A DNA stretch of 64,000 bases. Origin: Candidatus Poribacteria bacterium. GTDB lineage: Bacteria > Poribacteria > WGA-4E > WGA-3G. How positions within the stretch are numbered: position 1 is the stretch's first letter; the number at the start of each line of letters is the position of its first letter. Below, piece after piece: positions 156-28,751 of this stretch. Made by a program: the position numbers and the translations under genes. The notes below the pieces were generated by a model that was not told where the DNA came from, made no database searches, and was given only the letters and a program-made list of their open reading frames with translations. Where the stretch lies: NCBI GenBank assembly GCA_965197475.1, contig CBDANF010000003.1, forward strand, positions 2,368,001 to 2,432,000. Reading direction: 5' to 3'.

Positions 156-1748
156 ATGAAATTCTTTAGAAACAACGCATATTGGATACTCGGTATCCTT
201 ATCGGTATCGGTATTAGCACGGTGATTTTGATACTACGCGGACAACAAAAGGACGCGGAAACAACGCAGCACGGACCATCTGCGAAACCTGAACAACAGG
301 GCATCGCACAGGTTTCCCCAGAAAATGCTGCCAAACCACCGCCGCCCGGTGAAACACCAGAGAGCGGGTATTGGCATGGTGATCATTGGCACAAAACATC
401 GCCACCACAGGTGCTACCTCCGGCAAAACGAAAACGTCCTGCAAAATCGTCAACACAGAAAAACCTTCCCCTGAAACAGTGGACACACGGACCACACATC
501 GGACACCATCACCCGCGACCAAAACCAGGACCGGACCCGTTAGATTACGGGTTATCCCAAGAACAGATAGACCGAGCAAAAGAACGTCTTGCGTCCACAG
601 AATGGTACGAATACGGAGGCGACGATAGATCCTACATATACTGGAACGAAGAAAAACGGAAAGGTAAAACAGGAGAAGAGATATATGAGCAAATTAATCG
701 AGAAAAAGTAGACATCTTTACAGCGGATATGGATACCGTGAATGCGTTTAAATATCTCGCAGCGTATTCAAATTCAAATATAAATCAGTATGCGCCAGAG
801 TTTGCTGAACGTGCTGTAGCCGAAAATCCCGATTTTCTGGAGGGACATCTTTTCCTGGCACGACAAGAATTTGATATGCAAGGTGGTCGTGTTGGAACAG
901 TAAGGGATATGGTCCGTGCAACTGAGATATATCGCAAAATCGTGGAACACCCCGAACTCCACAGTGCATTGAATCCTACCGATGTGGTCAATTCCTTTGA
1001 AAGCTTAGGCAGCCTGCTTGTGATGGAGCAGCCTGTTGAATCGATTGAATACTTTAAACAGGCAACTAATATAGACCCGAAGTCCGGTTTGTATGGATTA
1101 AGTGTGGCTTACCAGCGATTAGGGGATGTCAAGACTGCCTGGGTATACCTCAAAAAGCTGCAAATCTATCCGCATTATGCAGAACTTGATCGGTATGCGG
1201 AGGCGATTGAAGCGGGTAAACCGTTGATTGACCCGTTACCGAGAACACCTGCACCGCCCGCTGCAAAGAAGGAACTGCCACCTGAGGTCTGGGATGCGTT
1301 TCCCGAAGGGACATCGGACACCGAGAAACCGTTTCACCCCGATACGGAGTGGGACCCACGCACACCAGCGCAGAATACCGCACCCGGTGCAAATACACAC
1401 CCGGATGCCGAACGCGCACGCGCTGCCGCACAGCAGGCACACGAGCATTTCCAAAAACAACACGAACGTGCATTGCAAGAACTCAACGATTTTTTTGATT
1501 TCGCACAAACCGTCTTCAACGCGGACAACCCGATGAATACCAATAACTTCTTACTCAAAGACATGGAGGCATTTTTCAAAGGTGGGCAACCGAAGTTTGA
1601 TCCTGACCGTATCATTCGCGCTTTCGAAACATTTGAACACTACGGTGCAAAAGAGGGGATCAAACATCTCCAAAAAAGCGATCTCGATGTCGCTGAAGCG
1701 GTTCTACAGCTGCTTACCGAAAAACGAAAATCCACTCCCAAAAAGTAA
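156..1748 (+). CDS. Membrane-anchored hypothetical protein with HxxHxH motif and TPR-like helices (paralog 1)
   Basis: RBS aaggagg before ATG156, matching the paralog start. N-terminal TM (AYWILGILIGIGISTVILIL), Pro-rich linker, WHGDHWH, and TPR-like LGSLL..ESIEYFKQATNIDP..LSVAYQRLG. Confidence 0.85.
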   Translation: MKFFRNNAYWILGILIGIGISTVILILRGQQKDAETTQHGPSAKPEQQGIAQVSPENAAKPPPPGETPESGYWHGDHWHKTSPPQVLPPAKRKRPAKSSTQKNLPLKQWTHGPHIGHHHPRPKPGPDPLDYGLSQEQIDRAKERLASTEWYEYGGDDRSYIYWNEEKRKGKTGEEIYEQINREKVDIFTADMDTVNAFKYLAAYSNSNINQYAPEFAERAVAENPDFLEGHLFLARQEFDMQGGRVGTVRDMVRATEIYRKIVEHPELHSALNPTDVVNSFESLGSLLVMEQPVESIEYFKQATNIDPKSGLYGLSVAYQRLGDVKTAWVYLKKLQIYPHYAELDRYAEAIEAGKPLIDPLPRTPAPPAAKKELPPEVWDAFPEGTSDTEKPFHPDTEWDPRTPAQNTAPGANTHPDAERARAAAQQAHEHFQKQHERALQELNDFFDFAQTVFNADNPMNTNNFLLKDMEAFFKGGQPKFDPDRIIRAFETFEHYGAKEGIKHLQKSDLDVAEAVLQLLTEKRKSTPKK

Positions 1749-1789
1749 CGCCTCTTGATAACGGCGGCAACAATAAAGGAGGAACGGAC

Positions 1790-3376
1790 ATGAAATTCTT
1801 TAGAAACAACGCATATTGGATACTCGGTATCCTTATCGGTATCGGTATTAGCACGGTGATTTTGATACTACGCGGACAACAAAAGGACGCGGAAACAACG
1901 CAGCACGGACCATCTGCGAAACCTGAACAACAGGGCATCGCACAGGTTTCCCCAGAAAATGCTGCCAAACCACCGCCGCCCGGTGAAACACCAGAGAGTG
2001 GGTATTGGCATGGTGATCATTGGCACAAAACATCGCCACCACAAGTGCTACCTCCGGCAAAACGAAAACGTACTGCAAAGTCGTCAACACAGAAAAACCT
2101 TCCCCTGAAACAGTGGACACACGGACCACACATCGGGCATTATCATCCGCCTAAAAATACGTGGCCGAACTATGCGGATTACGGGCTATCTCAAGAACAG
2201 ATAGACCGAATCGAAGAACTTGGCTTACAATGGCAAGCTGAATACGGTGATGAAGCATTCTTCAATAGAAGATGGGAACAGAAAGGCCAAACTCAAGAAG
2301 AATGGGAAGCGGAAGGACATCGGAAACAAGTTGATAACATCACAGCGGATATGGATGCTATTAATGCGTTTAAATATCTCGCTGCTACATCGCCTATCCG
2401 AAATCCTTCCCAACATCTGTCAGCTTACCGTCATTCTCGATTTTATGAATACTTGCCGGAGTTCGCTGAGCGTGCTGTCGCCGAGAATCCCGATTTCCTG
2501 AAGGGGCATCTTTTTCTAGCACAACAAGAAAAGGATCCGGCCCGTGCTATCGAAACATATCGCGAAATTGTGGAACACCCCGATGTACACACTGCCCTCA
2601 GTCCCACCGATGCTGTTACTGCCTTTGACAGCTTAGGCGGCCTGCTTGTGATGGAGCAGCCTGTTGAATCGATTGAATACTTTAAACAGGCAACTAATAT
2701 AGACCCGAAGTCCGGTTTGTATGGATTAAGTGTGGCTTACCAGCGATTAGGAGACCTCAAAACTGCCTGGGTATACCTCAAAAAGCTGCAAACCTATCCG
2801 CATCATGCAGAACTTGATCGGTATGTAGAAGCGATTGAAGCGGGTAAACCGTGGATTGACCCGTTGCCGAGGACATCTGCACCGCCCGCTGCAAAGAAGG
2901 AACTGCCATCTGAGGTCTGGGATGCGTTTCCCGAAGGGACATCGGACACCGAGAAACCGTTTCACCCCGATACGGAGTGGGACCCACGCACACCAGCGCA
3001 GAATACCGCACCCGGTGCAAATACACACCCGGATGCCGAACGCGCACGCGCTGCCGCACAGCAGGCACACGAGCATTTCCAAAAACAACACGAACGTGCA
3101 TTGCAAGAACTCAACGATTTTTTTGATTTCGCACAAACCGTCTTCAACGCGGACAACCCGATGAATACCAATAACTTCTTACTCAAAGACATGGAGGCAT
3201 TTTTCAAAGGTGGGCAACCGAAGTTTGATCCTGACCGTATCATTCGCGCCTTCGAAACGTTTGAACGCTATGGTGCAAAAGAGGGGATCAAACATCTCCA
3301 AAAAAGCGATCTCGATGTCGCTGAAGCGGTTCTACAGCTGCTTACCGAAAAACGAAAATCCACTCCCAAAAAGTAA
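1790..3376 (+). CDS. Membrane-anchored hypothetical protein with HxxHxH motif and TPR-like helices (paralog 2)
   Basis: Same RBS and same N- and C-termini as 156..1748. Confidence 0.88.
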   Translation: MKFFRNNAYWILGILIGIGISTVILILRGQQKDAETTQHGPSAKPEQQGIAQVSPENAAKPPPPGETPESGYWHGDHWHKTSPPQVLPPAKRKRTAKSSTQKNLPLKQWTHGPHIGHYHPPKNTWPNYADYGLSQEQIDRIEELGLQWQAEYGDEAFFNRRWEQKGQTQEEWEAEGHRKQVDNITADMDAINAFKYLAATSPIRNPSQHLSAYRHSRFYEYLPEFAERAVAENPDFLKGHLFLAQQEKDPARAIETYREIVEHPDVHTALSPTDAVTAFDSLGGLLVMEQPVESIEYFKQATNIDPKSGLYGLSVAYQRLGDLKTAWVYLKKLQTYPHHAELDRYVEAIEAGKPWIDPLPRTSAPPAAKKELPSEVWDAFPEGTSDTEKPFHPDTEWDPRTPAQNTAPGANTHPDAERARAAAQQAHEHFQKQHERALQELNDFFDFAQTVFNADNPMNTNNFLLKDMEAFFKGGQPKFDPDRIIRAFETFERYGAKEGIKHLQKSDLDVAEAVLQLLTEKRKSTPKK

Positions 3377-3460
3377 CGCCTCTTGACAACGGCAACTTTT
3401 ATAGCAAAGGAGAACTTTATGAAACTTATACGCGATTTAATACAGCAAAGGAGAAACTTC

Positions 3461-5347
3461 ATGAAATATAAACGCGCTTTTATCTTGTTACTGTTCGTCT
3501 TACTGTCCGCGCCGGTGGTGCCAGTCTACTCAGCCACGCCAGAAGTATACCCAATGTCAATCACGAAATACGGTTACACGTTGGAAGTGTCAAAGTTAGC
3601 CGCAAACTTCTTTCCCGATATCAATACAGATATAGGGTTTACGATCACCGTCACCTTTCCCTCAAACGCTTCGGGGGCTGACCTCTTTGTCGGACTACTA
3701 CCTGACAGCGTTTCGAACCATTTGGGGCAATGCATCAGCCACGATGACAATGGTGAACATGCTAATCCCGATCTTATGCTGCGATTGATGAATAACGATG
3801 GATGGAGACGGGTGAGCGGCAGCAGGACGACCCTTGTCAGTCATCTCATCGCCACGGGTACTTTACCTGTCCCTTCATCTGTCAATGTCTACTGTAAGGA
3901 TAGTGCCGCCTCTGGCAAAATCGTTATTAGCTTAGACCCGACTGGTAAACCCGCCATCAGTCTGACCCGGCGCATCCCATTTGATGACGCAAACGAAAAC
4001 GGTATCGCTGACGGCTGGGCAGGCGATGCAATCAAAAACTATACCGGTGGCGAAGACGAAGAAACAGGGCCCGCTGGCACCAACTTTTTAGGGTACGTTC
4101 TGGATGCCAACGGCAATATTGAGTACAATAACGTCGGCATACCAAAGACGAAGAGATATAACGTTGCCGCGAATGGACATGTTGGCGATGGACTTACCGC
4201 TTTTGAGGAGTACCGCGGCGCAAAACTCGCCCGCGGGCTACCCGTGAAAAGGTTCGATCCGACTGTAAAGGATATCTTCGTGACACATAGGTACCATAAC
4301 AATAATGACTTAAAGCAAAAAGGAACCGGCACGGGTGCTGATTTTAAACTCACTCCCTACGAGATCATAACCGCGAGGACGGATAACGTGGTCAATTTAT
4401 ATACGGACGGACGCGCAGCCTCTCGTGTTTTCGCGATTAAAATTGAAGAAAATACGACTCAAGCCCCCGCAAACTTGCAGGTTCCCCCTCTCGGAGAAGC
4501 AACAGGAAATGCAAACATACCGAAATGTACGGATGTGGCTAATGGATTCTATGAGTTCCCGCCAGAGGTAACCATTTACACTGCCCGTCTCACAGCTGAC
4601 GAGATGGGCAAGGTGCTCTCACACGAAATTGGGCACTGCGTCAACTTAGAGCATTGCGATCAGGCAGAACCGGGGTGCCTGATGTTTCATGCAGAAAAGA
4701 AATTGCGTATAAGTTTTGGCAAGTATCACATCCCCGAGTATGATTTGATAGAACCCTTTGCAGCAGTGCCGGTAGCTAACCCCATTATTGGTGGGGACAA
4801 CCCGGGCGATGGTAACGGGGACAGTGGTGATGATAGTAACATCCTCAGCACGAATACGGGTTATAGTTCTTCACATGGGTGTGATTATAACTCCGAACAT
4901 GACTATTGCTCAGACACTGGTACGTGTGGAAGTCAAACGTCGTTTGATGGCATCGGTCTCTGTGGACATCGTTGGTGCCTCTGTCCTGCCGATGATAGCA
5001 GTAGCATTCTCAGCACGAACACTGGTGTCAGTGATACCTATGGTTGTCACTATATATCAGAACGTGACTACTGCTCAGACACTGGCACGTGTGGAAGTCA
5101 AACGTCGTCTGATGGCATCGGTCTCTGCGGACACCGATACTGCCTCTGTCCCGCCACCGATGATAGCAGCACCGATGATAGCAGTAGCATTCTCAGCACG
5201 AACACTGGTGTCAGTGATACCTATGGTTGTCACTATATATCAGAACGTGACTACTGCTCAGACACTGGCACGTGTGGAAGTCAAACGTCGTCTGATGGCA
5301 TCGGTCTCTGCGGACACCGATACTGCCTCTGTCCCGCCGCGGACTAA
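3461..5347 (+). CDS. Secreted metzincin-like zinc metalloprotease with C-terminal Cys-rich repeats
   Basis: RBS aaggag + ATG3461. Signal peptide MKYKRAFILLLFVLLSAPVVPVYSA. HEIGHCVNLEH followed by a CLM Met-turn. DxNxNG/GDGL..EE Ca-type loops and three 6-Cys repeats. Confidence 0.8.
   Translation: MKYKRAFILLLFVLLSAPVVPVYSATPEVYPMSITKYGYTLEVSKLAANFFPDINTDIGFTITVTFPSNASGADLFVGLLPDSVSNHLGQCISHDDNGEHANPDLMLRLMNNDGWRRVSGSRTTLVSHLIATGTLPVPSSVNVYCKDSAASGKIVISLDPTGKPAISLTRRIPFDDANENGIADGWAGDAIKNYTGGEDEETGPAGTNFLGYVLDANGNIEYNNVGIPKTKRYNVAANGHVGDGLTAFEEYRGAKLARGLPVKRFDPTVKDIFVTHRYHNNNDLKQKGTGTGADFKLTPYEIITARTDNVVNLYTDGRAASRVFAIKIEENTTQAPANLQVPPLGEATGNANIPKCTDVANGFYEFPPEVTIYTARLTADEMGKVLSHEIGHCVNLEHCDQAEPGCLMFHAEKKLRISFGKYHIPEYDLIEPFAAVPVANPIIGGDNPGDGNGDSGDDSNILSTNTGYSSSHGCDYNSEHDYCSDTGTCGSQTSFDGIGLCGHRWCLCPADDSSSILSTNTGVSDTYGCHYISERDYCSDTGTCGSQTSSDGIGLCGHRYCLCPATDDSSTDDSSSILSTNTGVSDTYGCHYISERDYCSDTGTCGSQTSSDGIGLCGHRYCLCPAAD
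4829..5339 (+). repeat. Three intragenic ~54-aa Cys-rich repeats
   Basis: 4989-5156 and 5172-5339 are identical (offset 183). 4829-4990 is a diverged first copy. Confidence 0.95.
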
Positions 5348-5364: not shown

Positions 5365-5402
5365 ACAGGCAGTGCTTCCTTATTGAAAGGCTGCCTGTTT
5401 TC
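5365..5402 (+). terminator. Hairpin between protease and GspC-like gene (terminator/processing site)
   Basis: Stem acaggcag...ctgcctgt followed by a T-run. The related aggcag/ctgcct hairpin is at 28221. Confidence 0.55.
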
Positions 5403-5421
5403 TCAAGATGTTTAATACCCT

Positions 5422-5874
5422 ATGCGCCGTTGTCATTTGATTTACAGTCTGTGCCTCTTGGCATTTCTCATGTTTTGCGGAATATCGCTGTTTCCGCGAA
5501 AGGATCCTCCGCGATCGGAACCGTTAGTCGTGCCACCGGAGGACCCTGCCCCGCAGGCATCAAATACGTCCCCCGATGCCACACCGGACACATTCTATCA
5601 ATTTATCATCGACAATAATCTGTTCCGCCCACTTGGGTGGCAACCGCCCAAGCAGCAGCCCGACTATATCCTGCTCGGCACCGTCGTCGCACAGTTCCCC
5701 CAAGCGACCACCGCTGTTATCTTGGAACGCCGTTCCAAACAGTTGCAGATTATCACAGTCGGGGATACCCTTGGCACGTTAATCGTCACCGCCATAGAAC
5801 CTAAGCAGGTTACGTTGTGCAGACCCAATGGACAGCAGATTCTCATGCGCGGTGCCGCTTTCCAATCCTACTAA
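5422..5874 (+). CDS. GspC/T2SS protein C-like (TM + HR domain, no PDZ)
   Basis: N-terminal TM, Pro-rich linker, NLF motif, then YILLGTVV..AVI..VGDTL..VTAIEPKQVTL..G, which is the HR/PilP-type beta pattern. Confidence 0.65.
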   Translation: MRRCHLIYSLCLLAFLMFCGISLFPRKDPPRSEPLVVPPEDPAPQASNTSPDATPDTFYQFIIDNNLFRPLGWQPPKQQPDYILLGTVVAQFPQATTAVILERRSKQLQIITVGDTLGTLIVTAIEPKQVTLCRPNGQQILMRGAAFQSY

Positions 5875-6458: not shown

Positions 6459-6510
6459 GTCTAAACGTTGTAGGTGTGACCTATTGTCGTTATGTCAGTG
6501 AGGTGTGGAG

Positions 6511-6885
6511 ATGCCAACTATTAATCAATTAATTAAAAAACCGCGCAAAAAATATCGTAAAAAAACGAAATCCCCGATTCTCCAGCAGTGCCCACAACGT
6601 AGAGGTATCTGCTTACAGGTGAAAACGGTAACGCCAAACAAGCCTAACTCAGCCTTACGGAAAGTGGCACGTGTCCGGTTTACCTCTTCTACTGATGAAG
6701 CAACCTGTTATATTCCAGGGATTGACCACAATTTGCAGGAGCACTCAATGGTGTTAGTCCGCGGCGGGCGAGTCAAGGATTTGTCAAACGTGCGATACCA
6801 TATTGTCCGTGGCAAATTAGATACAGATGGTGTTGAAAACCGTCGCCAGGGTCGCTCTAAATATGGGGCGCGGAAGCCCGGTTAA
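6511..6885 (+). CDS. rpsL: 30S ribosomal protein S12
   Basis: MPTINQL..PQRRG..PNSALRK..HNLQEHS..GGRVKDL..RSKYG. Confidence 0.99.
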
Positions 6886-7001
6886 TTGACCAACAATATA
6901 AATTTCATCTTTGTTCAAGAAAACTTTGTTCAAGAAGATACGATAGATTGTAATACCGGTAAGAGAGCGGGTTGTGCTCTTGATTTCTGGAGGAATGATA
7001 C

Positions 7002-7472
7002 ATGCCGAGGCGTGGAAACGTCGCAAAACGGGACGTAAGTCCCGATGCCGTTCACAACAGCAAATTAGTTTCAAAATTTATTAACCATCTAATGTGGGAT
7101 GGTAAAAAAGGCACCGCACAACGGATTGTCTACACCAGTTTTCGGATTATTGAGGAGCGAGCGAAAGAGGATGGATTTACAGTGTTTCGACAAGCCATCA
7201 ATAATGTGAAACCTGTGCTGGAAATCCGCCCACGGCGTGTCGGAAGCCAAACATATCAAGTACCGGTTGATGTAAAAGCTGAACGACGAACCACTTTAGC
7301 GGTTAACTGGATTATCCAATCTGCGCGTAACCGAGGCGAAAAAGGTATGGCCGCGCGGTTGGCAGGCGAGCTTTTGGATGCATCGCAGAATGAAGGTAAC
7401 GCAATTGGTAAGAAACAAGACCAACACCGGATGGCGGAAGCAAATAGAGCCTTTGCACATTATCGATGGTAA
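7002..7472 (+). CDS. rpsG: 30S ribosomal protein S7
   Basis: [24 protein letters not shown]. Confidence 0.99.
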
Positions 7473-7558
7473 TCAAATTAAATAATAAACATAAAAACAA
7501 CACACAGAAAATTGTGAAACGGTGTCAAAAAGATCGACTAAACAAGGAGTCTTAAACT

Positions 7559-9670
7559 GTGTCGGACAACAAACAGAGGGTGCCACATCGGTCAGTCCTA
7601 TCGCATACGCGAAACATCGGTATTATGGCCCATATTGACGCGGGCAAAACGACTGTAACCGAACGAGTCCTATTTTATACGGGACGGGTCTACCGTATTG
7701 GTGAGGTACACGACGGTACGAGCACAATGGACTGGATGGTGCAGGAGCAGGAACGCGGTATTACCATTACTGCTGCGGCAACTACCTGTAACTGGAAAGA
7801 TCACCAAATTAATATCATTGATACGCCAGGACATATTGACTTTACCGTTGAAGTTGAACGTTCCTTGAGAGTTCTGGATGGTGCAGTTGCTGTGTTCTGT
7901 GCAGTCGGCGGCGTTGAACCCCAATCGGAAACGGTTTGGCGGCAAGCGGATAAATATGAAATCCCTCGTATTGCGTATGTCAATAAAATGGATAGAACCG
8001 GTGCTGACTTTTTCCGAACCGTTGAAATGATGGGTGAACGTTTAGGTGCTACTGCCTTACCTATCCAACTCCCAATCGGGTCTGCCGAACAATTCAAAGG
8101 AATTGTTGACCTCATTTCAATGAAAGGACAGTTGTGGGACGAAGGAAGTCTCGGTGCTGTTATTCATGAAACCGACATCCCCGCAGAAATGGAGGAAATG
8201 GTGCATGAATACCGGGATCGGTTGTTTGCTGCAGTCGCAGAATGGGATGATGAACTCTTAGTCAAATATCTTGATGGTGTTGAGATTACGCCTGAGGAAA
8301 TTAAAGCGGGGTTGCGTCAAGCGGTACTCAGTAGTAAAGTCGTGCCAGTGCTTTGCGGAAGCGCGCTAAAAAATAAGGGCGTTCAACCACTTTTAGATGG
8401 CATTGTCTCCTATCTCCCAGCTCCAACAGATGTCAAACCGGTTGTTGGGTTTAACCCGAAAACTGAGGAAGAAGAGACGCGTCCAGCAGATAAGGACGCA
8501 CCGTTCAGTGCACTTGCATTTAAAATTGCCACCGATCCACACGTTGGAAAACTGACATACCTACGCGTCTACTCCGGTGTCCTAAACAAAGGCACCACGG
8601 TTTACAACAGCAAACGCGAAAAATTTGAACGCATCGGCAGGTTGATGCAGATGCACGCTAATAAACGCGAAGAACATCAATCTGTTAGTGCTGGTGACAT
8701 CGTTGCTGTGATCGGATTAAAAGATTTAGGCACTGGTGACACTATCTGTGATCCTAAATCACCAATTGCACTGGAAACAATGGTTTTTCCGTTACCTGTC
8801 ATGTCAGTAGCGGTTGAACCACGCTCGCAATCAGACATTGATAAGTTAAATCTTGCCCTCTCAAAATTGGCTGAGGAAGACCCGACTTTCAAAGTTCATC
8901 AAGACCCAGATACAGGACAAACGCTCCTATCCGGCATGGGTGAACTGCATCTGGAAATCATCGTGGATAGGTTAGTGAGAGAGTTTAACGTTTCCGCTAA
9001 CGTAGGTTCACCTGAAGTGGCATATCGGGAAACACTTCTGAAACCAGTAAAAGTCCAAGGTAGATTTGTACGGCAATCGGGCGGCAGAGGGCAGTTCGGA
9101 CATGTTGTTATTGAGGTTACACCTCTTGAAAAAGGTACTGGCTTTGAATTTACTGATGAAACGAAGGGTGGGGTTATCCCCCAAGAATACATCCCTGCGG
9201 TTCGAAAAGGCATCGAAAATGCAATGAATGTCGGAACTTTAGCCGGTTACCCTGTCGTTGATGTTGGTGTTCGACTTGTAGACGGTTCTTTCCATCAGGT
9301 AGATTCCTCAGAGATGGCGTTTTCGATTGCTGGTTCTATAGCGTTCAAGGAAGCTGCAAAAAAGGCAGGATCAGTATTACTTGAGCCGATCATGGAGGTT
9401 GAAGTTTTAGTCCCTGATGAGTACCTTGGGAAAGTGATTGGCGATCTTAACTCTCGACGCGCTCATATTAGAGACACAGCGGTACATGCAAAATCGCGGA
9501 TTCAAGTCGTTCAGGTAGATGTTCCGTTGTCTGAAATGTTTGGTTACGTCAAATCACTTCGTTCGCTAACACAGGGACGTGCCAACTATTCTATGGAGTT
9601 TGGACATTATAGAGAGGTTCCAGCGAGCGTTGCTGAGGATTTGATTTCAAGCACAGTATCAACATCATAA
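7559..9670 (+). CDS. fusA: Elongation factor G
   Basis: [29 protein letters not shown] start after aaggag. Confidence 0.99.
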
Positions 9671-18946: not shown

Positions 18947-19005
18947 TCAAGTACTGAGGACTGCACAGCATACCCGCAAGTTCAAATGTAGATTGGAGAA
19001 ATAGA

Positions 19006-19646: not shown

Positions 19647-20015
19647 TTGGAAAAGGCGAAAAGAAAACAGATGAACCATCTTCGACGAAAGAAAAGAATT
19701 CGTCGAAAGATCAGCGGCACTAATGAACGCCCGAGGCTCTCTGTGAGTAGAAGTTTGAAACATATCTATGCCCAAATCATTGATGATGAGAACGGGAAGA
19801 CGCTTGCCCATGCCTCCAGTTTATCCCCTGAAGTAAAGGGAAATGCTGCTGAAGGTGGGAAGATACAAGTCGCTCAAAGCGTCGGTCAACTCATCGCGCA
19901 AAAGGCAAAGGAACATCAGATTGAGGGAGTCATCTTCGACCGAGGCGGTTATCTCTATCATGGTCGAATTAAAGCTCTCGCTGAAGCTGCAAGGGAAGGG
20001 GGGCTTAAGTTTTAA
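19647..20015 (+). CDS. rplR: 50S ribosomal protein L18
   Basis: [24 protein letters not shown]. Confidence 0.99.
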
Positions 20016-20050
20016 CTGCCCCGCGTTTTATCCCTTGAGAGGAGACTTTT

Positions 20051-20581
20051 TTGCGAAAAGAAAAAATCAATCCTGAAGATTTTGAATTTGAAGAACGACC
20101 TATTGCTATAAATCGAGTCATGCGTGTTGGAAAAGGGAGAAGGACCCCGAGTTTTAATACCCTCTCCGTTGTCGGCAATCGAAACGGCATCGTTGGAATC
20201 GGTTTTGGGAGCGCAAGCGAAATTTCTGGCGCACTCCGCAAAAGTTTTGCTGACGCACGGAAAAATTTAATTCGCGTTCCTCTATCTGATGGTACACTTC
20301 CTCATGAAATCATCTGTGAATTCAAAGCTGCAAAAGTCCTGCTAAAACCTGCAAGACCCGGTACTGGTATCATTGCTGGTCATGCAACGCGGGCTATTTT
20401 GGAACACGCAGGTGTACGGGACGCACTCACAAAATGCCTGTCTTCAAGAAATGTCAAGAATATCGCTGAGGCTACGATGATCGGTTTGAGAAATCTCAAA
20501 GATGTTAATGATGTCGCACGAATTCGAGGCAAAACAGTTGAAGAACTTTTACATAAACGTACTAACAATTCTAAAAACTGA
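20051..20581 (+). CDS. rpsE: 30S ribosomal protein S5 (divergent)
   Basis: INRV..VVG..PHE..PA.PGTGIIAG..AG. Confidence 0.97.
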   Translation: MRKEKINPEDFEFEERPIAINRVMRVGKGRRTPSFNTLSVVGNRNGIVGIGFGSASEISGALRKSFADARKNLIRVPLSDGTLPHEIICEFKAAKVLLKPARPGTGIIAGHATRAILEHAGVRDALTKCLSSRNVKNIAEATMIGLRNLKDVNDVARIRGKTVEELLHKRTNNSKN

Positions 20582-20616
20582 GCCTGCTCAGTCATATCTA
20601 AGGAATAATAGATTCA

Positions 20617-21063
20617 ATGAAACTCAACGAACTCAAACCTCCCCCTGGCGCAACTCGTAAGCGAAAACGCGTTGGCCGTGGTCGCGGATCCGGACATGGT
20701 GGCACCTGTGGTCGTGGGCATAAAGGACAAAAATCTCGTTCCGGCGGTTCAATCCCCGCTTGGTTTGAAGGCGGACAGATGCCTTTGGTCAGGCGTGTCC
20801 CGAAACGCGGACCCCGCAGAATCGCACACAAACGGTTAGAGTATGATGTCGTTAATATAAAAACCCTCAACCTATTTGAAGAGGAAATTGAGGTGAACCC
20901 TGAACGTCTCCGAGAAGCCGGCATCATTAAACGGAAAAACGCGCTCATTAAAATACTCGGCGATGGTCAACTTGACAAACGACTGAACGTGCGCGCACAT
21001 CGGTTTTCAAAATCCGCAATTGAAAAGATCGAAGCTAAAGGTGGCACTGCTGAGGTGATTTAA
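20617..21063 (+). CDS. rplO: 50S ribosomal protein L15
   Basis: [20 protein letters not shown]. Confidence 0.99.
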
Positions 21064-22407
21064 GTGATCAAGGCAATTCAAAACGCGTTTAAAATCCCTG
21101 AATTACGTAAGCGCATTATTTTTTCTGTGATGCTTTTAATCGTTTATCGACTTGGGGCACACATTACGCTTCCAGGTATTGATGATGGTGCACTTGAGGC
21201 ATTTTTTGAACAACTCATGGAGCGTACGGGAAATGTCATTGCACTGATCAATGTCTTCTCAGGCGGCGCATTTAGCCAGATGACGATTTTCGCACTCGGA
21301 ATTCAGCCCTATATCAGTGCCATGATTATTATGCAGCTGCTTCCTATGCTCATCCCATCCTTAGAAAGACTCTCTAAGGAACCGGATGGACGTAAAAAAA
21401 TCACCCAATATACACGCTACGGCACAGTCCTCCTCAGCATTGTTCAAGGGATAACGATTACCATTTTGTTAAGAAATCCAGGACAATTAATCGGCGGGGG
21501 TGCTGGTACTATAGTCAACAATCCCACCATTTGGTGGCACGCCTTGACAGTCTTAACATTAACAGCAGGCACCGCTTTTGTGATGTGGCTCGGTGAACAA
21601 ATTACCGAACGCGGTATTGGACAAGGAATCTCAATAATTATTACTGTCGGTATTATGGCAGGGTTTCCCAGTGGTGTCGTTACTGTCTTCAGGAGCCTGT
21701 TTGAAGATACGCGTTTTGGACTTATCCATCTGGTTACCTTACTTGCTCTCATTGTAATAGCTGTGGCAGGCACAATCTTTATTCATCTTTCTGTTCGCAA
21801 AATTCCAGTTCAATACGGTAAGCAGATCCGTGGTAACAAAGTGTTCGGTGGACGATCGATGTCTTTACCCTTACGGGTCAACACCGCCGGAATGATACCA
21901 ATTATCTTCGCTGTCTACTTAATGACGTTTCCAGGATTCGTCATCGGCATATTGCCAACGGATTGGACTTGGGTTGAAGGTTTGACAAGATTGATGGATC
22001 CTCAAAATCCATCTTTTTTATATCTTAGTATTTATGCATCGTTAATCATCGGATTCACCTATTTCTACACAGCCGTGCAACTCAATCCTGTTGAAATGGC
22101 TGAGAACTTGCAAAAACACGGTGGTTTTATACCTGGACTCCGGCCCGGAAAGCAGACTGCCGATTATATCAATACAACGTTGACACGTATTACACTTCCC
22201 GGTGCATTGTTTCTGGCTGGCATTGCTGTAATTCCTATTTCTATCACTAGTTGGCTCGGTGTTGGCGGAATGGTTGAAGGTGCTTCTGTCTTGATTGTCG
22301 TAGGGGTTGTATTGGATACGGTGTCACAAATTGAATCTTACTTAACGATGCGTCATTATGATGGATTCTTGAAAGATAGACGTTTAAAAGGACGCCGAGG
22401 CAGATAA
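21064..22407 (+). CDS. secY: Preprotein translocase SecY
   Basis: IFALGIQPYISA..WLGEQITERGIG..FIPGLRPG; multiple TMs. Confidence 0.99.
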   Translation: MIKAIQNAFKIPELRKRIIFSVMLLIVYRLGAHITLPGIDDGALEAFFEQLMERTGNVIALINVFSGGAFSQMTIFALGIQPYISAMIIMQLLPMLIPSLERLSKEPDGRKKITQYTRYGTVLLSIVQGITITILLRNPGQLIGGGAGTIVNNPTIWWHALTVLTLTAGTAFVMWLGEQITERGIGQGISIIITVGIMAGFPSGVVTVFRSLFEDTRFGLIHLVTLLALIVIAVAGTIFIHLSVRKIPVQYGKQIRGNKVFGGRSMSLPLRVNTAGMIPIIFAVYLMTFPGFVIGILPTDWTWVEGLTRLMDPQNPSFLYLSIYASLIIGFTYFYTAVQLNPVEMAENLQKHGGFIPGLRPGKQTADYINTTLTRITLPGALFLAGIAVIPISITSWLGVGGMVEGASVLIVVGVVLDTVSQIESYLTMRHYDGFLKDRRLKGRRGR

Positions 22408-22491
22408 ACGCACTATATTATATTCGTATGTGTTGTGCAAGAAAGACTTGCTTGTGAGGCGACCTATAGCAAACGAATTGGAAGGAAAACT

Positions 22492-22608
22492 ATGAAAGTC
22501 CGACCCTCTGTCAAGAAAATGTGTAACCGTTGTAAAATTATTAAAAGAAAAGGAATTATCCGCGTTATCTGTCCTTCGAATCCGAAGCATAAACAACGGC
22601 AGGGATAA
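22492..22608 (+). CDS. rpmJ: 50S ribosomal protein L36 (not in ORF track)
   Basis: Translated by hand: [38 protein letters not shown]. Confidence 0.98.
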
Positions 22609-22634
22609 TCTTTTCTACATGTAAGGAGGAAACC

Positions 22635-23030
22635 ATGGCACGCATAGCAGGAGTGGATTTACCCCGTACTAAACGGATTGATATCGCTTTAACAGCTATC
22701 TTCGGCATTGGTCGTTATACTGCATCACAGATCGTAACTGACCTTAATATCGACCCAGCCAAGAAGGTTGATGCTCTGGCTGAAAACGAAGTCAGTCAAC
22801 TCCGAGATAGAATCACTGAAGAATATAAAGTTGAAGGTGACTTGCGCCGAGAAGTTGACCAAAATATAAAACGACTCATGGATATTAACAGTTATCGTGG
22901 ATTTCGCCACAGACGGCAATTACCTGTGCGGGGGCAACGCACAAATACGAATGCTCGCACACGAAAAGGTAAAGCACGCACGATTTCTGTTGGTAGAAAA
23001 GCCAAAGAAGCAGCACGTAAAGGCGGTTGA
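22635..23030 (+). CDS. rpsM: 30S ribosomal protein S13
   Basis: [26 protein letters not shown]. Confidence 0.99.
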
Positions 23031-23121
23031 TTTAATCAGAGTTCCGCAGCAGTGCTATTTCTTATGTATCACAAATTGCGCATCCTACAGCGCACTTACG
23101 GTTATCTAAAGGAGAAACAGT

Positions 23122-23493
23122 TTGCGTTCACGAAGACGGGAACGAAAAAATGTACCGGAGGGCATCGCCCACATCCAGGCTACGTTCAATAATACAATTG
23201 TGACTATCACCGACCCCAACGGCAATACGGTTGCTTGGGCGAGCGCAGGAATGACGTTTCCCGGTTCGCGCAAGTCAACACCTTTTGCAGCGCAACAGAC
23301 TGCAGAAGCATGTGCCAGAAAAGCAATGGAACACGGTATGAAACGGGTTGAAGTGAGAGTCAAAGGCCCAGGATCCGGGCGAGAATCTTCAATTCGCGCA
23401 CTTGCCGCTGCTGGGCTAGAAATTACTTTGATGAAAGATATGACACCCATTCCACACAACGGATGTCGTCCACCCAAAAGACGACGGGTGTAA
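23122..23493 (+). CDS. rpsK: 30S ribosomal protein S11
   Basis: [29 protein letters not shown]. Confidence 0.99.
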
Positions 23494-23505
23494 CCAAGGA
23501 GGCAC

Positions 23506-24138
23506 ATGAGTAGGTATTTAGATTCTGTTTGTAAGTTATGCCGTCGAGAGGGGGAAAAACTTTTTCTGAAAGGCCGCAGATGCCTTGGACCAAAATGCTC
23601 CTTTGAACGAAGAAGTTATCCACCCGGCGACCACGGACAAAAACCACCCACACGCGCTCGGGGCGAATATCGACGACAATTACGCACTAAACAAAAAGCA
23701 AAGCGAATTTACGGTATCTTTGAGAAACAGTTTCGCAACTATTATTTCAAAGCAGCACGCCAAACCGGTATCACCGGCGAGAATTTAATTGCGCTCCTTG
23801 AACGCCGCTTAGACAATGTCGTTTATCGACTCGGGTTTGCAACATCACGTAAACAAGCCAGACAATTGGTGAAACACAATCACTTCACTGTCAATGGGAA
23901 GCGAGTCAATATACCTTCCTATCTGGTTGAAATTGGAGATGTTATCACCCCACGCGAAAAAAGCCGTGAAAGCATCACGATTCAAGAAGCGTTAGAATTT
24001 TCAAAGCAACGGGGCGCACCCGAATGGCTCGAAATTGATGCTGGTAAGCCTGAAGGACGAGTGCAAGGAACACCAATTGTGGAGCATATTGCAGCAGAGT
24101 TAGACACACAACTAATTATTGAATTATACTCAAGGTAA
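23506..24138 (+). CDS. rpsD: 30S ribosomal protein S4
   Basis: [25 protein letters not shown]. Confidence 0.99.
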
Positions 24139-24236
24139 CAACTATTGCCTCTTGAATGTTAACAAATTTGATCCGTTCAATATGATTGTTATTTTATCAA
24201 ATTTGACAGAAAAAGCCGTAAATCCACGGTTCCCTA

Positions 24237-24266
24237 TTGCGTAGGATAATATAAGAATATTAAAAT
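24237..24266 (+). promoter_or_regulatory. Possible internal promoter for rpoA-rplQ
   Basis: TTGCGT - 18 bp - TAAAAT in the 400-bp rpsD-rpoA spacer. Confidence 0.3.
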
Positions 24267-24540
24267 GCGCCTTACCTCTGTCGAAATTCCAAGAGGCAAT
24301 TCAAGTTGTTTTCATAACTACTTACTGTTGTAACCTCTACTAATTGTTTGATACAACCGTGTCAACAATAACAGATAACACAACACAAGCAGTTGTAACG
24401 AGTACATAGTCAAAAAACATTACAGTTTTACAAGCCACATTAATCCCGCGACAACGCACGTGGGCAGGCGAGGTAATGTTTTTGGAACAAAACTGTTTGA
24501 CTCTGTTTATAGAAAAACTTAAGCCTATAGGAGGAAATCG

Positions 24541-25563
24541 ATGAATAGGTTGCATTTAACAATGCCTGACCGTCTGGTAGCCGATACCGAAACCTTACTG
24601 CCAAATTATGCGAAATACACCGCTGAGCCTCTTGAACGAGGATTCGGTACTACTCTGGGCAACTCGCTTCGTCGAGTACTTCTCTCTTCCATTAAAGGAT
24701 CTGCCATCACTGCCATTCAAGTCGATCAGGTCAAGCATGAATATTCAACTATTCCAGGAATTTTAGAAGATGTTGTACAGATAATTCTTAACCTCAAGAC
24801 AATTCGGTTCCGACTTCTACAGGACGAACCCATGATATTGGAACTCACCGCAAGCGGTTCCGGTGAACTGACAGCAGCCGACATCCGCCCCAATGCACTT
24901 GTTGAAATTATCAACCCTGACCAACACATCGGAACGCTTGATAAGTGTCAGGGAATAGATATGGAAATTCAAGTCCAGACGGGACGCGGTTACTCACTTG
25001 CAGAAGAACATAGGGATCTTAAACAACCCATCGGATGGATCCCGGTTGATGCAAAATTTTCGCCGGTCGAAAAAGTTAATTTCTGGGTAAACGAAACCCG
25101 GGTTGAAGACATGACGAATTTCGATCAACTCAATCTCGAAATATGGACAGATGGAAGTATTACACCGAAATTGGCTATCACACAAGCCGCGGATATTTTG
25201 CGCAGCCAACTTGATATCTTTACCGAATTCGATGAAACCTACGTCGAACCAGAACCCGAAATTGACGAAGCGAAAATATTGAGAAACAGATACCTCTCAA
25301 AACCTGTCGCTGACTTGGAGCTTTCAGTACGAGCTGGAAACTGCCTTGAAACCGCAAATATCAAAACTATACGTCAACTTGTTGCCAAAAATGAGAAAGA
25401 GATGTTGGAATACAAGAACTTCGGTAGAACTTCTCTGAATGAAATCAAAGACCAACTTGCCAACATGGGATTGACTCTTGGAATGGATTTAGATGACGAT
25501 CTTTATATTGACACAGATGGGGAGGAATCAGAATGCGACACAGAAAACGCGGAAGAAAATTAG
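24541..25563 (+). CDS. rpoA: RNA polymerase alpha subunit
   Basis: EPLERGFGTTLGNSLRRVLLSS..LELSVR..KNFGRTSL.EI. Confidence 0.99.
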   Translation: MNRLHLTMPDRLVADTETLLPNYAKYTAEPLERGFGTTLGNSLRRVLLSSIKGSAITAIQVDQVKHEYSTIPGILEDVVQIILNLKTIRFRLLQDEPMILELTASGSGELTAADIRPNALVEIINPDQHIGTLDKCQGIDMEIQVQTGRGYSLAEEHRDLKQPIGWIPVDAKFSPVEKVNFWVNETRVEDMTNFDQLNLEIWTDGSITPKLAITQAADILRSQLDIFTEFDETYVEPEPEIDEAKILRNRYLSKPVADLELSVRAGNCLETANIKTIRQLVAKNEKEMLEYKNFGRTSLNEIKDQLANMGLTLGMDLDDDLYIDTDGEESECDTENAEEN

Positions 25564-25934
25564 GACGTACCACAAGCCATAGAAACGCTCTCTTCCGCAA
25601 CCAAGCTACCGCACTGTTCGAACATGAACAAATCCGGACAACCTTGCACAAATGTAAGGAACTCCGACGCGTCGCGGAAAAACTTATCACACTCGCAAAA
25701 CAGGACACTTTGCATGCACGCCGACGTGCCGCACGACACTTATATGGGGCGAACCTCCATTATACACCACGTCGTGGTGAATCGGGAGCAGTCCAAAAAC
25801 ACGCTATTCTTCAGAAACTTTTTGAAGATATAGCACCTCGGTACCAAGATCGGAATGGCGGCTATACACGCATTATTCGCGGGGAATTAAGACGCGGCGA
25901 CGGTGCACAGATGGCTTACATTCAACTTGTTTGA
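25533..25934 (+). CDS. rplQ: 50S ribosomal protein L17
   Basis: MRHRK..LGR..GGYTRI..RRGDGA.MA. Overlaps rpoA by 31 bp. Confidence 0.99.
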   Translation: MRHRKRGRKLGRTTSHRNALFRNQATALFEHEQIRTTLHKCKELRRVAEKLITLAKQDTLHARRRAARHLYGANLHYTPRRGESGAVQKHAILQKLFEDIAPRYQDRNGGYTRIIRGELRRGDGAQMAYIQLV

Positions 25935-26060: not shown

Positions 26061-26215
26061 TATACCATTTCTAAGTGATTATATTGCATTAATTCGTCCG
26101 TTGGGTAGAGTTTGCGAAACCCATTATGTGTCAACTTAAGGAAATTAACCCTTATTTGTATGTATTTCAGCCCCAACGGGGCGAAAGGTGTATAAAAAAC
26201 GCGTGATAACAATTT
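26061..26215. mobile_element. Composite MITE/REP segment abutting the transposase 3' end
   Basis: 26061-26140 is a near reverse complement of 49721-49802. agccccaacggggcgaaaggtgt is related to repeats at 49545 and 52058. Confidence 0.6.
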
Positions 26216-27264
26216 TTAGATGCCGCCAATACTGTTCTATACCGTGGTGTTGAGACCATATCCGTAGGATTTCACACGCACGCAGCGGTTTCCCGAATAC
26301 CAGCATTGTTCGGATTTTGCCACGGTCTGCCAAGAACAACACCACTACTTTTCCAAAAGTTGGACTTGTGGCTTTAGTGCGATAGACCGGTTTATCGCAA
26401 CCCCATTGATTGGAGAGGAGTTTGATCGGCTTTTTATGCTCCGAGAGTTTCACCTTTTTTTCATCAATCGTCATCACATAGTTGCTTTTTCCGTGCACAA
26501 GGATCGTTTCAAATCCCATTTCTCGCAAGGTGTCAATCAAGTGGTGGCTGCCATACCACGCATCGAAGGTGATCGGATAGTTTCGGATATCTATTCCGGT
26601 CTCTTCAAAAAAGGACACCACTTCCTTGAACATAGTGATGACACAGGAGGGTTTATCCGTGTTCCCGCGGCCTTGTTTGCTGACCAGTCGCATATTCAGC
26701 GGAATGATCTGATTTCCAATCTTTATTGTGATCCCCAATATATTTTGTCCCTTCATCGGCTGATTTGCTTGAGAAGACCACCAATCAGATACGTAGGAGA
26801 GCTCCGCTCCATAACGGAAAACAAAGGTATCATCCACACTGATGACGATACACAGACGCGATAGGGTAGAAGCACTTTTTGATACTGCCTCCTGTAGCAC
26901 CTCTAACGCAATAGAACACCCGATACGCACAAAAAGATGCTGCCAGAGATAAAGACTCATCGTATTCAGTGCCCGATATAGTCTCGCTTTCGGAATAGAC
27001 AGCGCATCCGCCACTTGATCCGGGTTAGTAAGTCCAAACAGATGACAGGTTGACAAAAACACTAAGGTATGAACAAGACCCTGTTTCAAGGTGCGAAACT
27101 GTGAAGAAAGAAGTAGTTGAAAAAAGGTTATAGATTTGATAAGCTGAGTTAGCATGAGATGTCCTCCTAATGCATTTTATGTCTGAAACTGTAATTAGGA
27201 TGGGCTCTCATGCTATAAAAGTCAAGGAAAATGGACACAGCAAAAACGCATTTTCATGGCGTTA
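26145..27264 (-). mobile_element. IS4/IS701-like DDE insertion sequence, 3'-truncated (transposase 27155..26145)
   Basis: SVDDT, FDAWYG and HGIEQYWRHLK DDE motifs. The 22-bp end taacgccatgaaaatgcgtttt (27264-27243) is shared with 60261. Confidence 0.8.
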
Positions 27265-28208
27265 CACCTTGTTTCTATTGATGATTATTAGGTTGAAGAC
27301 CATTCTGAGAAATATCAGATAGGTTACGTCAGTGACGATGCCATTAAAATGCAGGAAGCTGCCCATGCAGCCGGTGCTGATAGATACTGGTCTTATACAG
27401 AGTATGATAATCATACGCATGCGGATTGGCGGGATGATTATCAAAGGGCAATAGGTGCTGAAGATTGGCCCCCAGAAATTGATACTTCCGGGCAGCTGGC
27501 ATCCCAAACACAGACCGGCGATGGCACGTCTTCGGAAACTACTGTGCCGGTAGACAACTCCCCCGACTGTGATTCCTGTACAACAGGTGGGTGTTCCGCG
27601 TGCCCGGTTATGGTGCTTGTGGGGTGCATACCGGCATCGCCTCAAGTGAGGCAAGTGACCACGCTTATACAGTGGGTGGCTGTACGCATTCCTACTATAT
27701 GTGTCAAGCAAGCGGCCATGAATGGGGCACCGCGCCGTGTGGCGATGCGACACATGTTGGGTATCTCTGTCAAATTGTCGCATCGGATCAGGAGTGGGTA
27801 TATGAGATTTGTCCATCCATGCATGCATATTATGAATGCGATGGGAGTGATCATTCATTACAAGCGAGTTGTTCAGAAACGAATGCAAACGGCGATAGTT
27901 GTACGGTGACGAGTTTCTATGCGTGTCAGACGCATACGCATGCCTATCCACCTCTGCCGACGGTTGCTTGTTGGGCGAGCAGCTGGTCTGGCTGCACGGC
28001 ACAGGTGAGTTCAGGTACAGCGCATAGAGTTGACAGCTGCACATCGTGTAGCAGTACCTATTGGACGTGTAGTTCAGATCATGTTGCCCTACATGAAACA
28101 CAACGAACATGTCGGCGTTCCGGCTGTGGGCAGACTTTTATACGCTGTTCCAAGCCAACGTGTCTCGCTGACTCAGACAGGAAGTGCTGGGCGGTGAATA
28201 CCGACTAA
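27265..28208 (+). pseudogene. Disrupted secreted protein: peptidase-M15-like tail plus Cys/His-rich C-terminus
   Basis: 5' end removed by the IS, in-frame TAG at 27289, and a frameshift near 27610 joining ..CDSCTTGGCSACPV to GACGVH..C-rich. YDNHTHADWR resembles the M15 HxHxDxR motif. Confidence 0.6.
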
Positions 28209-28220
28209 TCTTTCAACAAC

Positions 28221-28256
28221 AAGGCAGGTATCCGATTTTGGTATCTGCCTTTCTTC
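28221..28256 (+). terminator. Hairpin before second GspC-like gene
   Basis: aaggcaggtatc...ggtatctgcctt followed by tcttct. Confidence 0.6.
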
Positions 28257-28277
28257 TATTCAACGGGACACACTTTG

Positions 28278-28751
28278 ATGAACCCTCGCATATTCGGATT
28301 TCTCTTTGTTGGACTGCTTATTTTATTGACTGCGGACAGTCTTTATCTCCGCCCAGCTGCACCTACCCCTCCGCAGCAACGACAAACGCGCGAGGTATCA
28401 AGTCAATCAAAGTCAATGCAGCGCGATGCTACCACAAGGAACACCGATAGCACACCCGACTCATTCTACCAGACTATCATTGACAACAATATCTTCCGTT
28501 CACTCGGTTGGCAACCGCCCAGAAAACAGCCGGACTATACCCTCATCGGCACAGCAGTTTCCCAAAATGTTGCAGATTCAAAGGCGTTTATATTGGAGCG
28601 GCGTTCAAATCGGTTGCATACTGTCAAAGTTGGGGACACCCTTGACGATGCGCGTGTAAAAGAGATTCAATCGAAACGTGTTACACTGCATGAAGCAGGA
28701 AAAGACATAATCCTGCATGGCGGCAGGCTGCAGTTTTCTAATATCAATTAA
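28278..28751 (+). CDS. GspC/T2SS protein C-like (paralog of 5422..5874)
   Basis: TM, then TPDSFYQTIIDNNIFRSLGWQPPRKQPDYTLIGT (26/34 identical to paralog), then VKVGDTL..VKEIQSKRVTL. Confidence 0.68.
   Translation: MNPRIFGFLFVGLLILLTADSLYLRPAAPTPPQQRQTREVSSQSKSMQRDATTRNTDSTPDSFYQTIIDNNIFRSLGWQPPRKQPDYTLIGTAVSQNVADSKAFILERRSNRLHTVKVGDTLDDARVKEIQSKRVTLHEAGKDIILHGGRLQFSNIN

Follow-up and report, generated by a model that had tools for sequence, protein, structure and literature searches.

This research work indicated that two small membrane proteins encoded in a 64,000-nucleotide stretch of DNA from a Candidatus Poribacteria bacterium (the window, which here means the whole stretch that was analysed) are a real and previously undescribed variant of a known part of a type II secretion system (T2SS), namely its GspC/PilP component. 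The window belongs to a 5.7-Mb assembly in three contigs (genome G000, with C2 and C3 among its contig labels). Each of the two genes closes a cassette in which the gene of a secreted protein (the passenger) is followed by a hairpin and then by the gene of the small protein (the adaptor). The analysis established the predicted fold of these proteins, their family membership, the ancestral position of the family inside a T2SS operon, the lack of a GspC gene in the present operon, and the fact that the cassette recurs and is inherited as a mosaic. From a mechanistic point of view, it is plausible that the short paralogs serve the one T2SS of this genome as cargo-linked entry adaptors, a reading to which we assign a probability of about 0.4. 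The two cassettes consist of the following features.

3461..5347, + strand: P1, secreted metzincin-like peptidase of 628 residues, with a signal-peptide-like start, an Ig-like N-domain, the motif HEIGHCVNLEHC..C.M and three 6-Cys tail repeats
5365..5403, + strand: hairpin 1, terminator-like, between P1 and G1, with stem ACAGGCAG/CTGCCTGT (~5365-5372/5391-5398), then a T-run
5422..5874, + strand: G1, short GspC/PilP-like protein of 150 residues, with a transmembrane (TM) helix at 3-22, the segment FYQxIIDNNxFRPLGW and an HR beta domain at 82-143
27331..28208, + strand: P2 remnant, the 3' third of a passenger labelled M15-like, with a Cys/His tail, 5'-truncated and with a frameshift near 27615-27624
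28221..28257, + strand: hairpin 2, with stem AAGGCAGGTATC/GGTATCTGCCTT (28221-28232/28240-28251), then a T-rich run
28275..28751, + strand: G2, short GspC/PilP-like protein of 158 residues, intact, with a Pfam T2SSC match and 86-87% identity to the copy at C2:361559

An earlier note, made from the letters of the window, had described this architecture twice, and both open reading frames are indeed present, coding for paralogous single-pass membrane proteins; each gene follows, at ~70 nt, that of a secreted protein, from which a hairpin separates it. The aggcag/ctgcct stems were located in both cassettes, each followed by a T-rich run; both passenger genes end in GAC TAA, and the 26 identical residues out of 34 in the TPDxFYQ..GT stretch were confirmed by eye on the translations. 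Over 103 residues, G1 and G2 share 51% identity (E 4e-37).

Fold, family and ancestral gene position

The structural data were in line with the HR/PilP fold that had been proposed for the small proteins. The AlphaFold2 model of G1, built with 64 homologs, reached a mean predicted local distance difference test (pLDDT) value of 82.6 and comprised the TM helix at 3-22, a short helix at 55-64 and a six-stranded domain at 82-143 with a pLDDT of ~95. Among its ten best Foldseek matches in the PDB, eight were PilP, GspC, LspC or PulC-HR chains (PilP 3jc8_Pa as the best, the further PilP entries 2lc4, 2ivw and 2y4y, Legionella LspC 7oio and PulC HR 6hcg_e) and one was GspB (4wfw, at rank 9). Superposition on the HR domain of GspC from enterotoxigenic Escherichia coli (ETEC), solved in complex with GspD (3oss_C), gave a TM-score of 0.83 on the target and a root-mean-square deviation of 2.8 Å over 71 columns. 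The Foldseek E-values were modest (2e-3 to 0.15), as is expected for a domain of only ~70 residues. With regard to sequence families, G2 scored 28.3 bits against Pfam T2SSC (PF11356, cut-off 27) over model positions 2-139 of 141, G1 scored 15.7 bits and the other paralogs 22.7-25.9 bits or no match at all, under that cut-off. The sole NCBIfam match was GspC_delta, at 37.3 bits (G2) and 23.9 bits, under its cut-off of 150, and the PilP model (PF04351) matched one paralog only, at C2:1210609, with 17.6 bits against a cut-off of 25.6 (E 0.0038). On the strength of these models, the small proteins are predicted to adopt the GspC-HR/PilP fold.

The window's genome encodes 12 full-length paralogs of this family, in short forms and in long forms bearing a charged C-terminal extension. 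Their most conserved part is the FYxxIIxNNxFRPLGW segment, located just before the HR domain. In the alignment of the paralogs, no lipobox cysteine was found at the expected N-terminal place, the N-termini being TM helices, and in the short forms, which stop 7-10 residues past the last strand of the HR domain, no PDZ or coiled-coil domain follows it. The source records name the homologs only as hypothetical proteins; in the titles and abstract openings of the papers listed on Poribacteria type II secretion, on substrate specificity of GspC paralogs and on Poribacteria secreted metalloproteases, no description of the system was found.

The secretin and T2SS core on which the earlier note's proposal depends were found in one operon without a GspC-like gene. 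Indeed, the genome contains one secretin, one GspE and one GspF, all of them in a single operon (C2:571641-585329) together with genes for pseudopilins, T2SSJ, T2SSK, a PilM_2-type protein and a 420-residue protein without Pfam match. This sole T2SS operon lies on another contig than the window, in accordance with the earlier statement that no T2SS genes adjoin the cassettes, and none was seen near either of them. A family search of the operon proteins revealed no T2SSC/GspC-like gene. The 420-residue protein, encoded upstream of the secretin, gave no match to the profile of the adaptor family (hhalign probability of 1.9%); it is homologous to a T2SSM (GspM)-like protein of a relative (E 5e-10), and an atlas look-up gave only weak leads to T2SSM/PilO. 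The operon being devoid of a GspC/PilP-like gene, the 12 dispersed genes are thus the only carriers of this domain in the genome.

Five deep-branching Poribacteria genomes (G046, G006, G008, G013 and G002) were then searched with the family profile and their loci were read. Four of them, all but G002, encode a member of 256-377 residues with the same motif between a GspM-like gene and the secretin. The order in G046 is T2SSK, PilM_2/PilN, T2SSM-like, a 263-residue family member and the secretin, contiguous and on one strand, while a ~269-residue member directly precedes the secretin in G008 and G013, after a large third platform gene. In G006, a 377-residue member stands between a T2SSM_b protein and the secretin, and an additional 256-residue member (T2SSC 21.8 bits) lies directly 5' of a second secretin of 786 residues. 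The family match of G002 is on another contig than its secretin matches. Like the long-form paralogs of the window's genome, these operon-encoded forms combine the Y..I..N.F.PLGW segment with an HR domain and bear a charged tail at the C-terminus. Two secretin homologs were compared with the GspD N0 model, with 21.4 bits for L157, under the cut-off, and 54.4 bits for L159, above it. Among 61 sampled Poribacteria genomes, the adaptor family occurred in 60 (1-15 matches each) and the secretin in all 61; in the window's own taxonomic family, the nearest adaptor-secretin pairs among those listed were 26-50 kb apart. Because the long form lies between a GspM-like gene and the secretin in deep-branching relatives, the gene order indicates that the family is the Poribacteria equivalent of T2SS GspC/PilP and that it moved out of the operon and multiplied in this lineage. 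A co-fold of secretin residues 50-235 with adaptor residues 50-150 scored 0.20 against a mark of 0.32, was run without controls and speaks neither for nor against binding.

Several known systems resemble this family to various extents. Like GspC (ETEC GspC, Klebsiella PulC, Legionella LspC), the adaptors are predicted single-pass inner-membrane proteins with a periplasmic HR beta domain (matches 3oss_C, 6hcg_e, 7oio and 2lnv), the Pfam T2SSC match spans TM helix, linker and HR domain, and the gene is adjacent to the secretin in deep-branching relatives. Classical GspC typically has a PDZ or coiled-coil domain after the HR domain, whereas the short forms have neither, are encoded outside the gsp operon in a genome with 12 copies, 7 of them behind cargo genes, score at or under the curated cut-offs and are most conserved in the segment before the HR domain. 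As to PilP, which provided the best structural match, the pilP gene precedes the secretin gene in the pilMNOPQ order, and the ancestral adaptor gene similarly lies between a PilM/PilN/GspM-like block and the secretin; however, the anchor here is a TM helix and the Pfam PilP match is weak and confined to one paralog. The operon itself is that of a T2SS because it includes T2SSK and T2SSJ pseudopilin genes. GspB/OutB is likewise bitopic with an HR-like periplasmic domain, and in some species its gene stands outside the main operon, but no sequence-family match to GspB was seen in the adaptors and, to our knowledge, GspB is single-copy and not linked to cargo.

It should be noted that many relatives of genus g1 (e.g., G040:C1:569997-573705) carry two or three tandem secretin genes of ~1010 residues, where the window's genome has one, and that long-form adaptor genes often stand in tandem pairs as well. 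At C3:2807746-2810593, a DegP/HtrA-type protease with two PDZ domains is encoded ~450 nt 5' of a long-form adaptor; classical GspC bears its own PDZ domain. This neighbour was not conserved in the other genomes inspected.

Recurrence and mosaic inheritance of the cassette

The cassette is not restricted to the window. In the window's genome, 7 of the 12 paralogs lie 55-112 nt 3' of a passenger-family gene on the same strand, a pattern far beyond chance; among the other five, two abut an STT3-like protein gene, one precedes a pair formed by a gene for a membrane-anchored TPR protein (T) and a passenger gene (P), giving the order G-T-P with the adaptor gene as G, and two have none of the neighbours screened for. 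Cassette 1 is located just 5' of rpsL/rpsG, a position kept in other Poribacteria (L030-L032, L034, L035) with the T-P-G order retained in L030-L032 and L035, L034 being cut by a contig end, and G1 groups with the copies from other genomes at the equivalent site. The sevenfold recurrence and the conserved site upstream of rpsL agree with the non-random neighbourhood expected in the earlier note. The cassette is consequently one real, recurrent and partly conserved use of the short paralogs.

Comparison of the copies revealed a mosaic. The metzincin cassette at C3:3666k and the M15-like one at C3:582k have unrelated enzyme parts, but an 891-nt stretch of their DNA, which runs through the last tail module, the hairpin and the adaptor, is 92.5% identical. 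Between the cassettes at C2:362k and C3:582k, the DNA identity is 96.7% over 418 nt, comprising the HR-coding part and 140 nt past the stop codon. Within a set of five short paralogs, the HR domains are 80-97% identical as proteins, while for the TM-plus-linker part the identity is 78-99% inside a tail group and 19-33% from one group to another; with an HR identity of 44-46%, G1 is an outlier. It is thus as one DNA unit that tail, hairpin and adaptor move between unrelated enzymes. Such a pattern fits a constant docking part combined with a variable one that accompanies the cargo tail, and duplication with gene conversion explains it equally well.

The same data bear on a plainer explanation, according to which the copies are interchangeable GspC subunits of one T2SS whose position behind strongly expressed genes of secreted enzymes would couple the amount of GspC to the secretion load, with no recognition of cargo. 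The near-identity of the five HR domains, the DNA identity running past a stop codon, which suggests homogenisation, the lack of a GspC gene in the operon and the presence of adaptors behind several tail types and two enzyme types are all in its favour. However, the long-form paralogs, conserved throughout the phylum, would be a more obvious housekeeping copy, the N-terminal parts differ strongly between cassette groups, and sub-families hold distinct contexts over long evolutionary distances. We therefore regard a generic supply of GspC as doubtful.

A second possibility is that the short adaptors are duplicates without function, which ride on a recombining 3' module made up of tail, hairpin and downstream DNA, and are in decay. 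The mosaic structure and the near-identical DNA beyond the adaptor stop codon would agree with it, as would the unusual expansion of the cassette family in one genome (20 passenger matches, against 0-6 in relatives) and the state of cassette 2, which has already been broken by an insertion sequence (IS) element:

26145..27155, - strand: IS-type DDE transposase gene abutting the truncated P2, with weak DDE_5 and DDE_Tnp_1 matches under the cut-off

Indeed, P2 was matched in two frames by tblastn with its intact paralogs C3:581067 (602 residues) and C2:362104 (711 residues) and with the L030 passenger; the match starts only at about residue 328 of the 602-residue query, with nothing earlier, and the transposase gene sits where the 5' two-thirds of P2 would be expected. 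By contrast, the adaptor G2 of this broken cassette is intact, the frames of all 12 copies are open without stops, and several species have retained the copy at the rpsL site with an intact motif, its protein identity to G1 being 34-53%, which makes mere hitch-hiking highly improbable.

The hairpin is a regular component of the cassette. In each of the six cassettes of the window's genome that were folded, a GGCAG/CTGCC stem followed by a T-run separates the passenger from the adaptor, the intergenic stretch of hairpin 1 folding at -27.6 kcal/mol, and the sequence features of an intrinsic terminator (G+C-rich stem-loop, T-run, gene end) were present in all six. A simple terminator scan considered loops of 3-8 nt only, and missed hairpin 1 because of its 18-nt loop. 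Genome-wide, 22 such hairpins with a T-rich tail were counted, about 9 of them after secreted Cys-rich or Ig-tailed genes with no adaptor. Within other genomes, the hairpin was observed in 5 of 9 related loci (L029, L032, L033, L035 and L129), with a variant in L030, and did not show up in the stretches taken from L031 and L128. Since it follows passenger-type genes with or without an adaptor, the hairpin is best read as a terminator-like element of the passenger gene rather than as an adaptor-specific one. Only ~20-40 nt separate it from the adaptor start codon, which leaves no room for a promoter, so that the adaptor is probably made by read-through, this being the simplest inference, and below the level of the cargo. 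In L034 (183-420), the hairpin is split by a ~150-nt insert that forms a long stem of its own and might represent a miniature mobile element. The same hairpin was also observed, with no adaptor, at C2:1188206-1194501 and C3:2830957-2833875, where a small anchored protein accompanies a secreted protein with 26-31 Cys ending in ..RIRFHEPRQ.

Candidate role in secretion and neighbours in other genomes

Substrate recognition by the T2SS is a long-standing question, and GspC is among the suspected readers. In the mechanism that we propose, the starting point would be the long form, a single-pass inner-membrane protein with a secretin-docking periplasmic HR domain, its gene standing between those of the GspM-like protein and the secretin. 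This gene has moved out of the operon and multiplied, some copies now lying behind genes for Sec-exported peptidases. The FYxxIIxNNxFRPLGW segment and the HR domain would plug every paralog into the one T2SS, and the variable TM-plus-linker part, inherited with the cargo tail, would bias the T2SS towards the co-encoded cargo, either directly or via the anchored TPR protein, with the adaptor produced by read-through of the hairpin in lesser amounts than its cargo. We infer three of these steps, namely docking on the secretin, co-transcription with the passenger and cargo selection. The public sequencing runs listed were four of DNA type, from two studies, with no RNA run among them, which bears on expression in neither direction. 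By analogy only, effector-linked adaptor genes of the type VI secretion system (T6SS) offer a parallel: they adjoin effector genes, and a small accessory gene is inherited with variable cargo while the machine is encoded elsewhere. The T6SS differs in machine, fold and location, the adaptors considered here being predicted as periplasmic and membrane-anchored.

The distribution of neighbours in other genomes was determined in two directions. Relatives were collected by pattern scan (almost all Candidatus Poribacteria; 80 of 161 loci kept), and the neighbours of 88 family members in loci L029-L108 were scored within 600 nt. An STT3-like gene was the neighbour of 21 members, a passenger gene of 8 (including L090, a weak partial passenger match) and a gene for an extracytoplasmic function (ECF) sigma factor of 8, while 12 were tandem long forms, 1 had a T gene and 38 had none of these. 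Conversely, 20 passenger loci were taken from other genomes of the same taxonomic family: a T gene lay upstream in 17, and an adaptor was nearby in 4 (L119, L122, L128 and L129). These four are further P-G or G-T-P loci, L119 being apparently the same record as L035. The upstream TPR protein, suggested as a partner in the earlier note, is therefore the constant neighbour of the passenger. In sixteen extra loci from genomes rich in the adaptor family, some of which duplicate earlier loci, the same STT3-linked operon recurred, often followed by a CDP-alcohol-phosphatidyltransferase-like gene (a label drawn from its N-terminal sequence and not from a family match). In a tree of the adaptors (27 rows), copies grouped by genomic context and, within the window's genome, by tail type; as the contexts form separate clades, they are old and stable.

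These neighbours could reflect a re-use of the family outside secretion, in which the short paralogs would have ceased to serve the T2SS and would assist anchored TPR-like proteins and envelope enzymes as periplasmic scaffolds or regulators, so as to hold, mature or glycosylate exports or to feed an ECF sigma signal. In line with this, the 21 STT3-linked members often have overlapping stop and start codons, the 8 ECF-linked ones abut the sigma gene (with a 15-nt overlap in L036, L037 and L039), anchored T-like proteins also precede the STT3-linked copies, and the constant partner of the passenger is the TPR protein and not the adaptor. However, the motif and the HR domain of the ancestral, operon-encoded form are retained in all sub-families, no further known partner of this fold is present, and, according to their PDB entry titles, its solved relatives all make contact with secretins. 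Re-use of this kind thus seems somewhat unlikely. A broader version of the secretion reading would make the family a panel of exchangeable GspC-like entry adaptors serving one T2SS, each inherited with its cargo tail, in which the constant motif and HR domain plug into secretin and platform and the variable membrane-proximal part selects the peptidase, STT3-like glycosyltransferase or ECF sigma pathway; this would represent a modular, cargo-encoded route to T2SS specificity, and we consider it unlikely in this wide form.

Several observations weigh against the narrower reading of cargo-linked entry adaptors. Near-identical HR domains argue against discrimination of cargo by that domain, and the co-variation of N-terminal part and tail type is explicable by duplication history alone, the tree containing too few independent events. 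The STT3-like enzyme is the commonest neighbour elsewhere, followed by the ECF sigma factor, with passengers at the same 8 of 88. The adaptor is moreover optional for the cargo, as 16 of the 20 passenger loci in other genomes have none nearby and all six dockerin-tailed passengers of the window's genome lack one next to them, being followed by WD40-dockerin genes. G052 and G058 carry 15 family matches and no passenger match. Separate expression is another possible meaning of a terminator placed between cargo and adaptor. In view of the HR domains, the adaptor-less passengers and the other neighbours of most members, the earlier claim that each adaptor is dedicated and substrate-specific was not supported, and neither was the idea of the Cys-rich tail as an adaptor recognition tag, given that adaptors follow passengers with at least four tail types.

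This lineage has taken a GspC/PilP-like gene out of its operon, multiplied it up to 15-fold and tied some copies to cargo genes; provided that the copies are functional adaptors, an adaptor, its cargo, an anchored TPR protein and one secretin constitute a ready set for testing how substrates are selected. In addition, the cassettes point to an uncultured sponge symbiont with a large arsenal of secreted peptidases under rapid shuffling, a matter of relevance to the processing of host matrix or food.

Some details of these other contexts should be mentioned. The STT3-linked operon (C3:337028-342455, L148, L149, L151, L153 and L154) is conserved and encodes anchored T-like proteins, an STT3-like multi-pass protein of ~820 residues (Pfam STT3 41 bits; NCBIfam archaeo_STT3 52 bits, under the cut-off) and a GspC-like protein, often together with a small multi-pass protein of ~205 residues; stop and start codons frequently overlap at the GspC-like gene. 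An 837-residue neighbour first taken as a possible secretin was rejected as such, being STT3-like. In L036-L039 (e.g., L037:7330-8441), the GspC-like gene occupies the usual position of an anti-sigma gene, in a 15-nt overlap with the end of the ECF sigma gene, and nearby genes encode proteins of 850-990 residues in which WD40 or glycosylhydrolase-like parts are joined to an ECF-sigma-like N-terminus. An anti-sigma role for these copies was dropped, as they have only ~12 cytoplasmic residues.

Passengers and neighbouring genes of the window

The passengers differ between the cassettes, as the earlier note had stated: P1 displays HEIGHCVNLEH and three 6-Cys repeats, and P2 is a remnant. The metzincin fold and the M15-like label were, for their part, not confirmed. 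The zinc motif of P1 has Asn at the position where the metzincin HExxHxxGxxH has Gly. In the passenger alignment, H388, E389, H392, C399, C406 and H423 are invariant and M408 nearly so, and the common parts consist of an Ig-like N-domain, the motifs IPRDxNxNxIADxWE and GDGxxxxxEYRG and the invariant HExxH...H...C...C.M block. The passenger profile matched archaemetzincin (3lmc, E 1.6e-3; 2x7m) and adamalysins in the PDB, with E-values of 1.6e-3 to 0.03, while the only NCBIfam match of P1 was archmetzin, at 25.3 bits against a cut-off of 145, and Pfam M54 gave an E-value of 0.1. The full-length AlphaFold2 model of P1 had a mean pLDDT of 50.7, with confidence only for residues ~30-175 and values below 30 in the tails, and Foldseek returned generic Ig-like sandwiches for the N-domain only, so that the catalytic fold was left unconfirmed. 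The passenger thus resembles archaemetzincins and adamalysins, including snake-venom metalloproteinases, by its HExxHxxxxxH followed by C and C.M, but adds the Ig-like N-domain, motifs of its own and swappable tails, with scores far under the cut-offs. A word-based search with the N-terminal and catalytic part retrieved 3 proteins, the passenger itself included. The cassette type at C3:581067 and C3:587999 bears a different N-terminal enzyme, for which no family model confirmed the M15-like label.

The passenger tails are modular and comprise 6-Cys repeats, a Cys/His module, an Ig-like 'YKITARVYPW' module, dockerin-like repeats and, in other genomes, Fn3-like ends. A sorting signal of the MYXO-CTERM type, C-terminal and containing Cys (10.1101/2023.06.07.544157), was considered and rejected, the tails having no terminal TM segment. 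The passenger family is patchy, being present in 18 of 41 genomes. At C2:589008-597778, C2:639524-648918, C3:989650-1000160 and C3:3704337-3711722, a T gene and a dockerin-tailed metzincin gene are followed by WD40 arrays with dockerin-like ends; such loci may represent a surface assembly of the cohesin/dockerin style.

Upstream of P1, the window contains two genes for anchored TPR proteins, with TPR matches that are weak and under the Pfam cut-offs.

156..1748, + strand: T1, membrane-anchored TPR protein, from its open reading frame and translation, with an N-terminal TM helix, the GYWHGDHWH motif, TPR and a conserved C-terminal helical region
1790..3376, + strand: T2, second anchored TPR protein, directly 5' of passenger P1, from its open reading frame and translation

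Between the two cassettes, at 6505-25934, lies a block of genes for ribosomal proteins, EF-G/EF-Tu, secY and rpoA. Over 60-3376, the N-terminal ~95 residues and the C-terminal ~190 residues of T1 and T2 are identical while their middles have diverged, which points to a recent tandem duplication with partial conversion.

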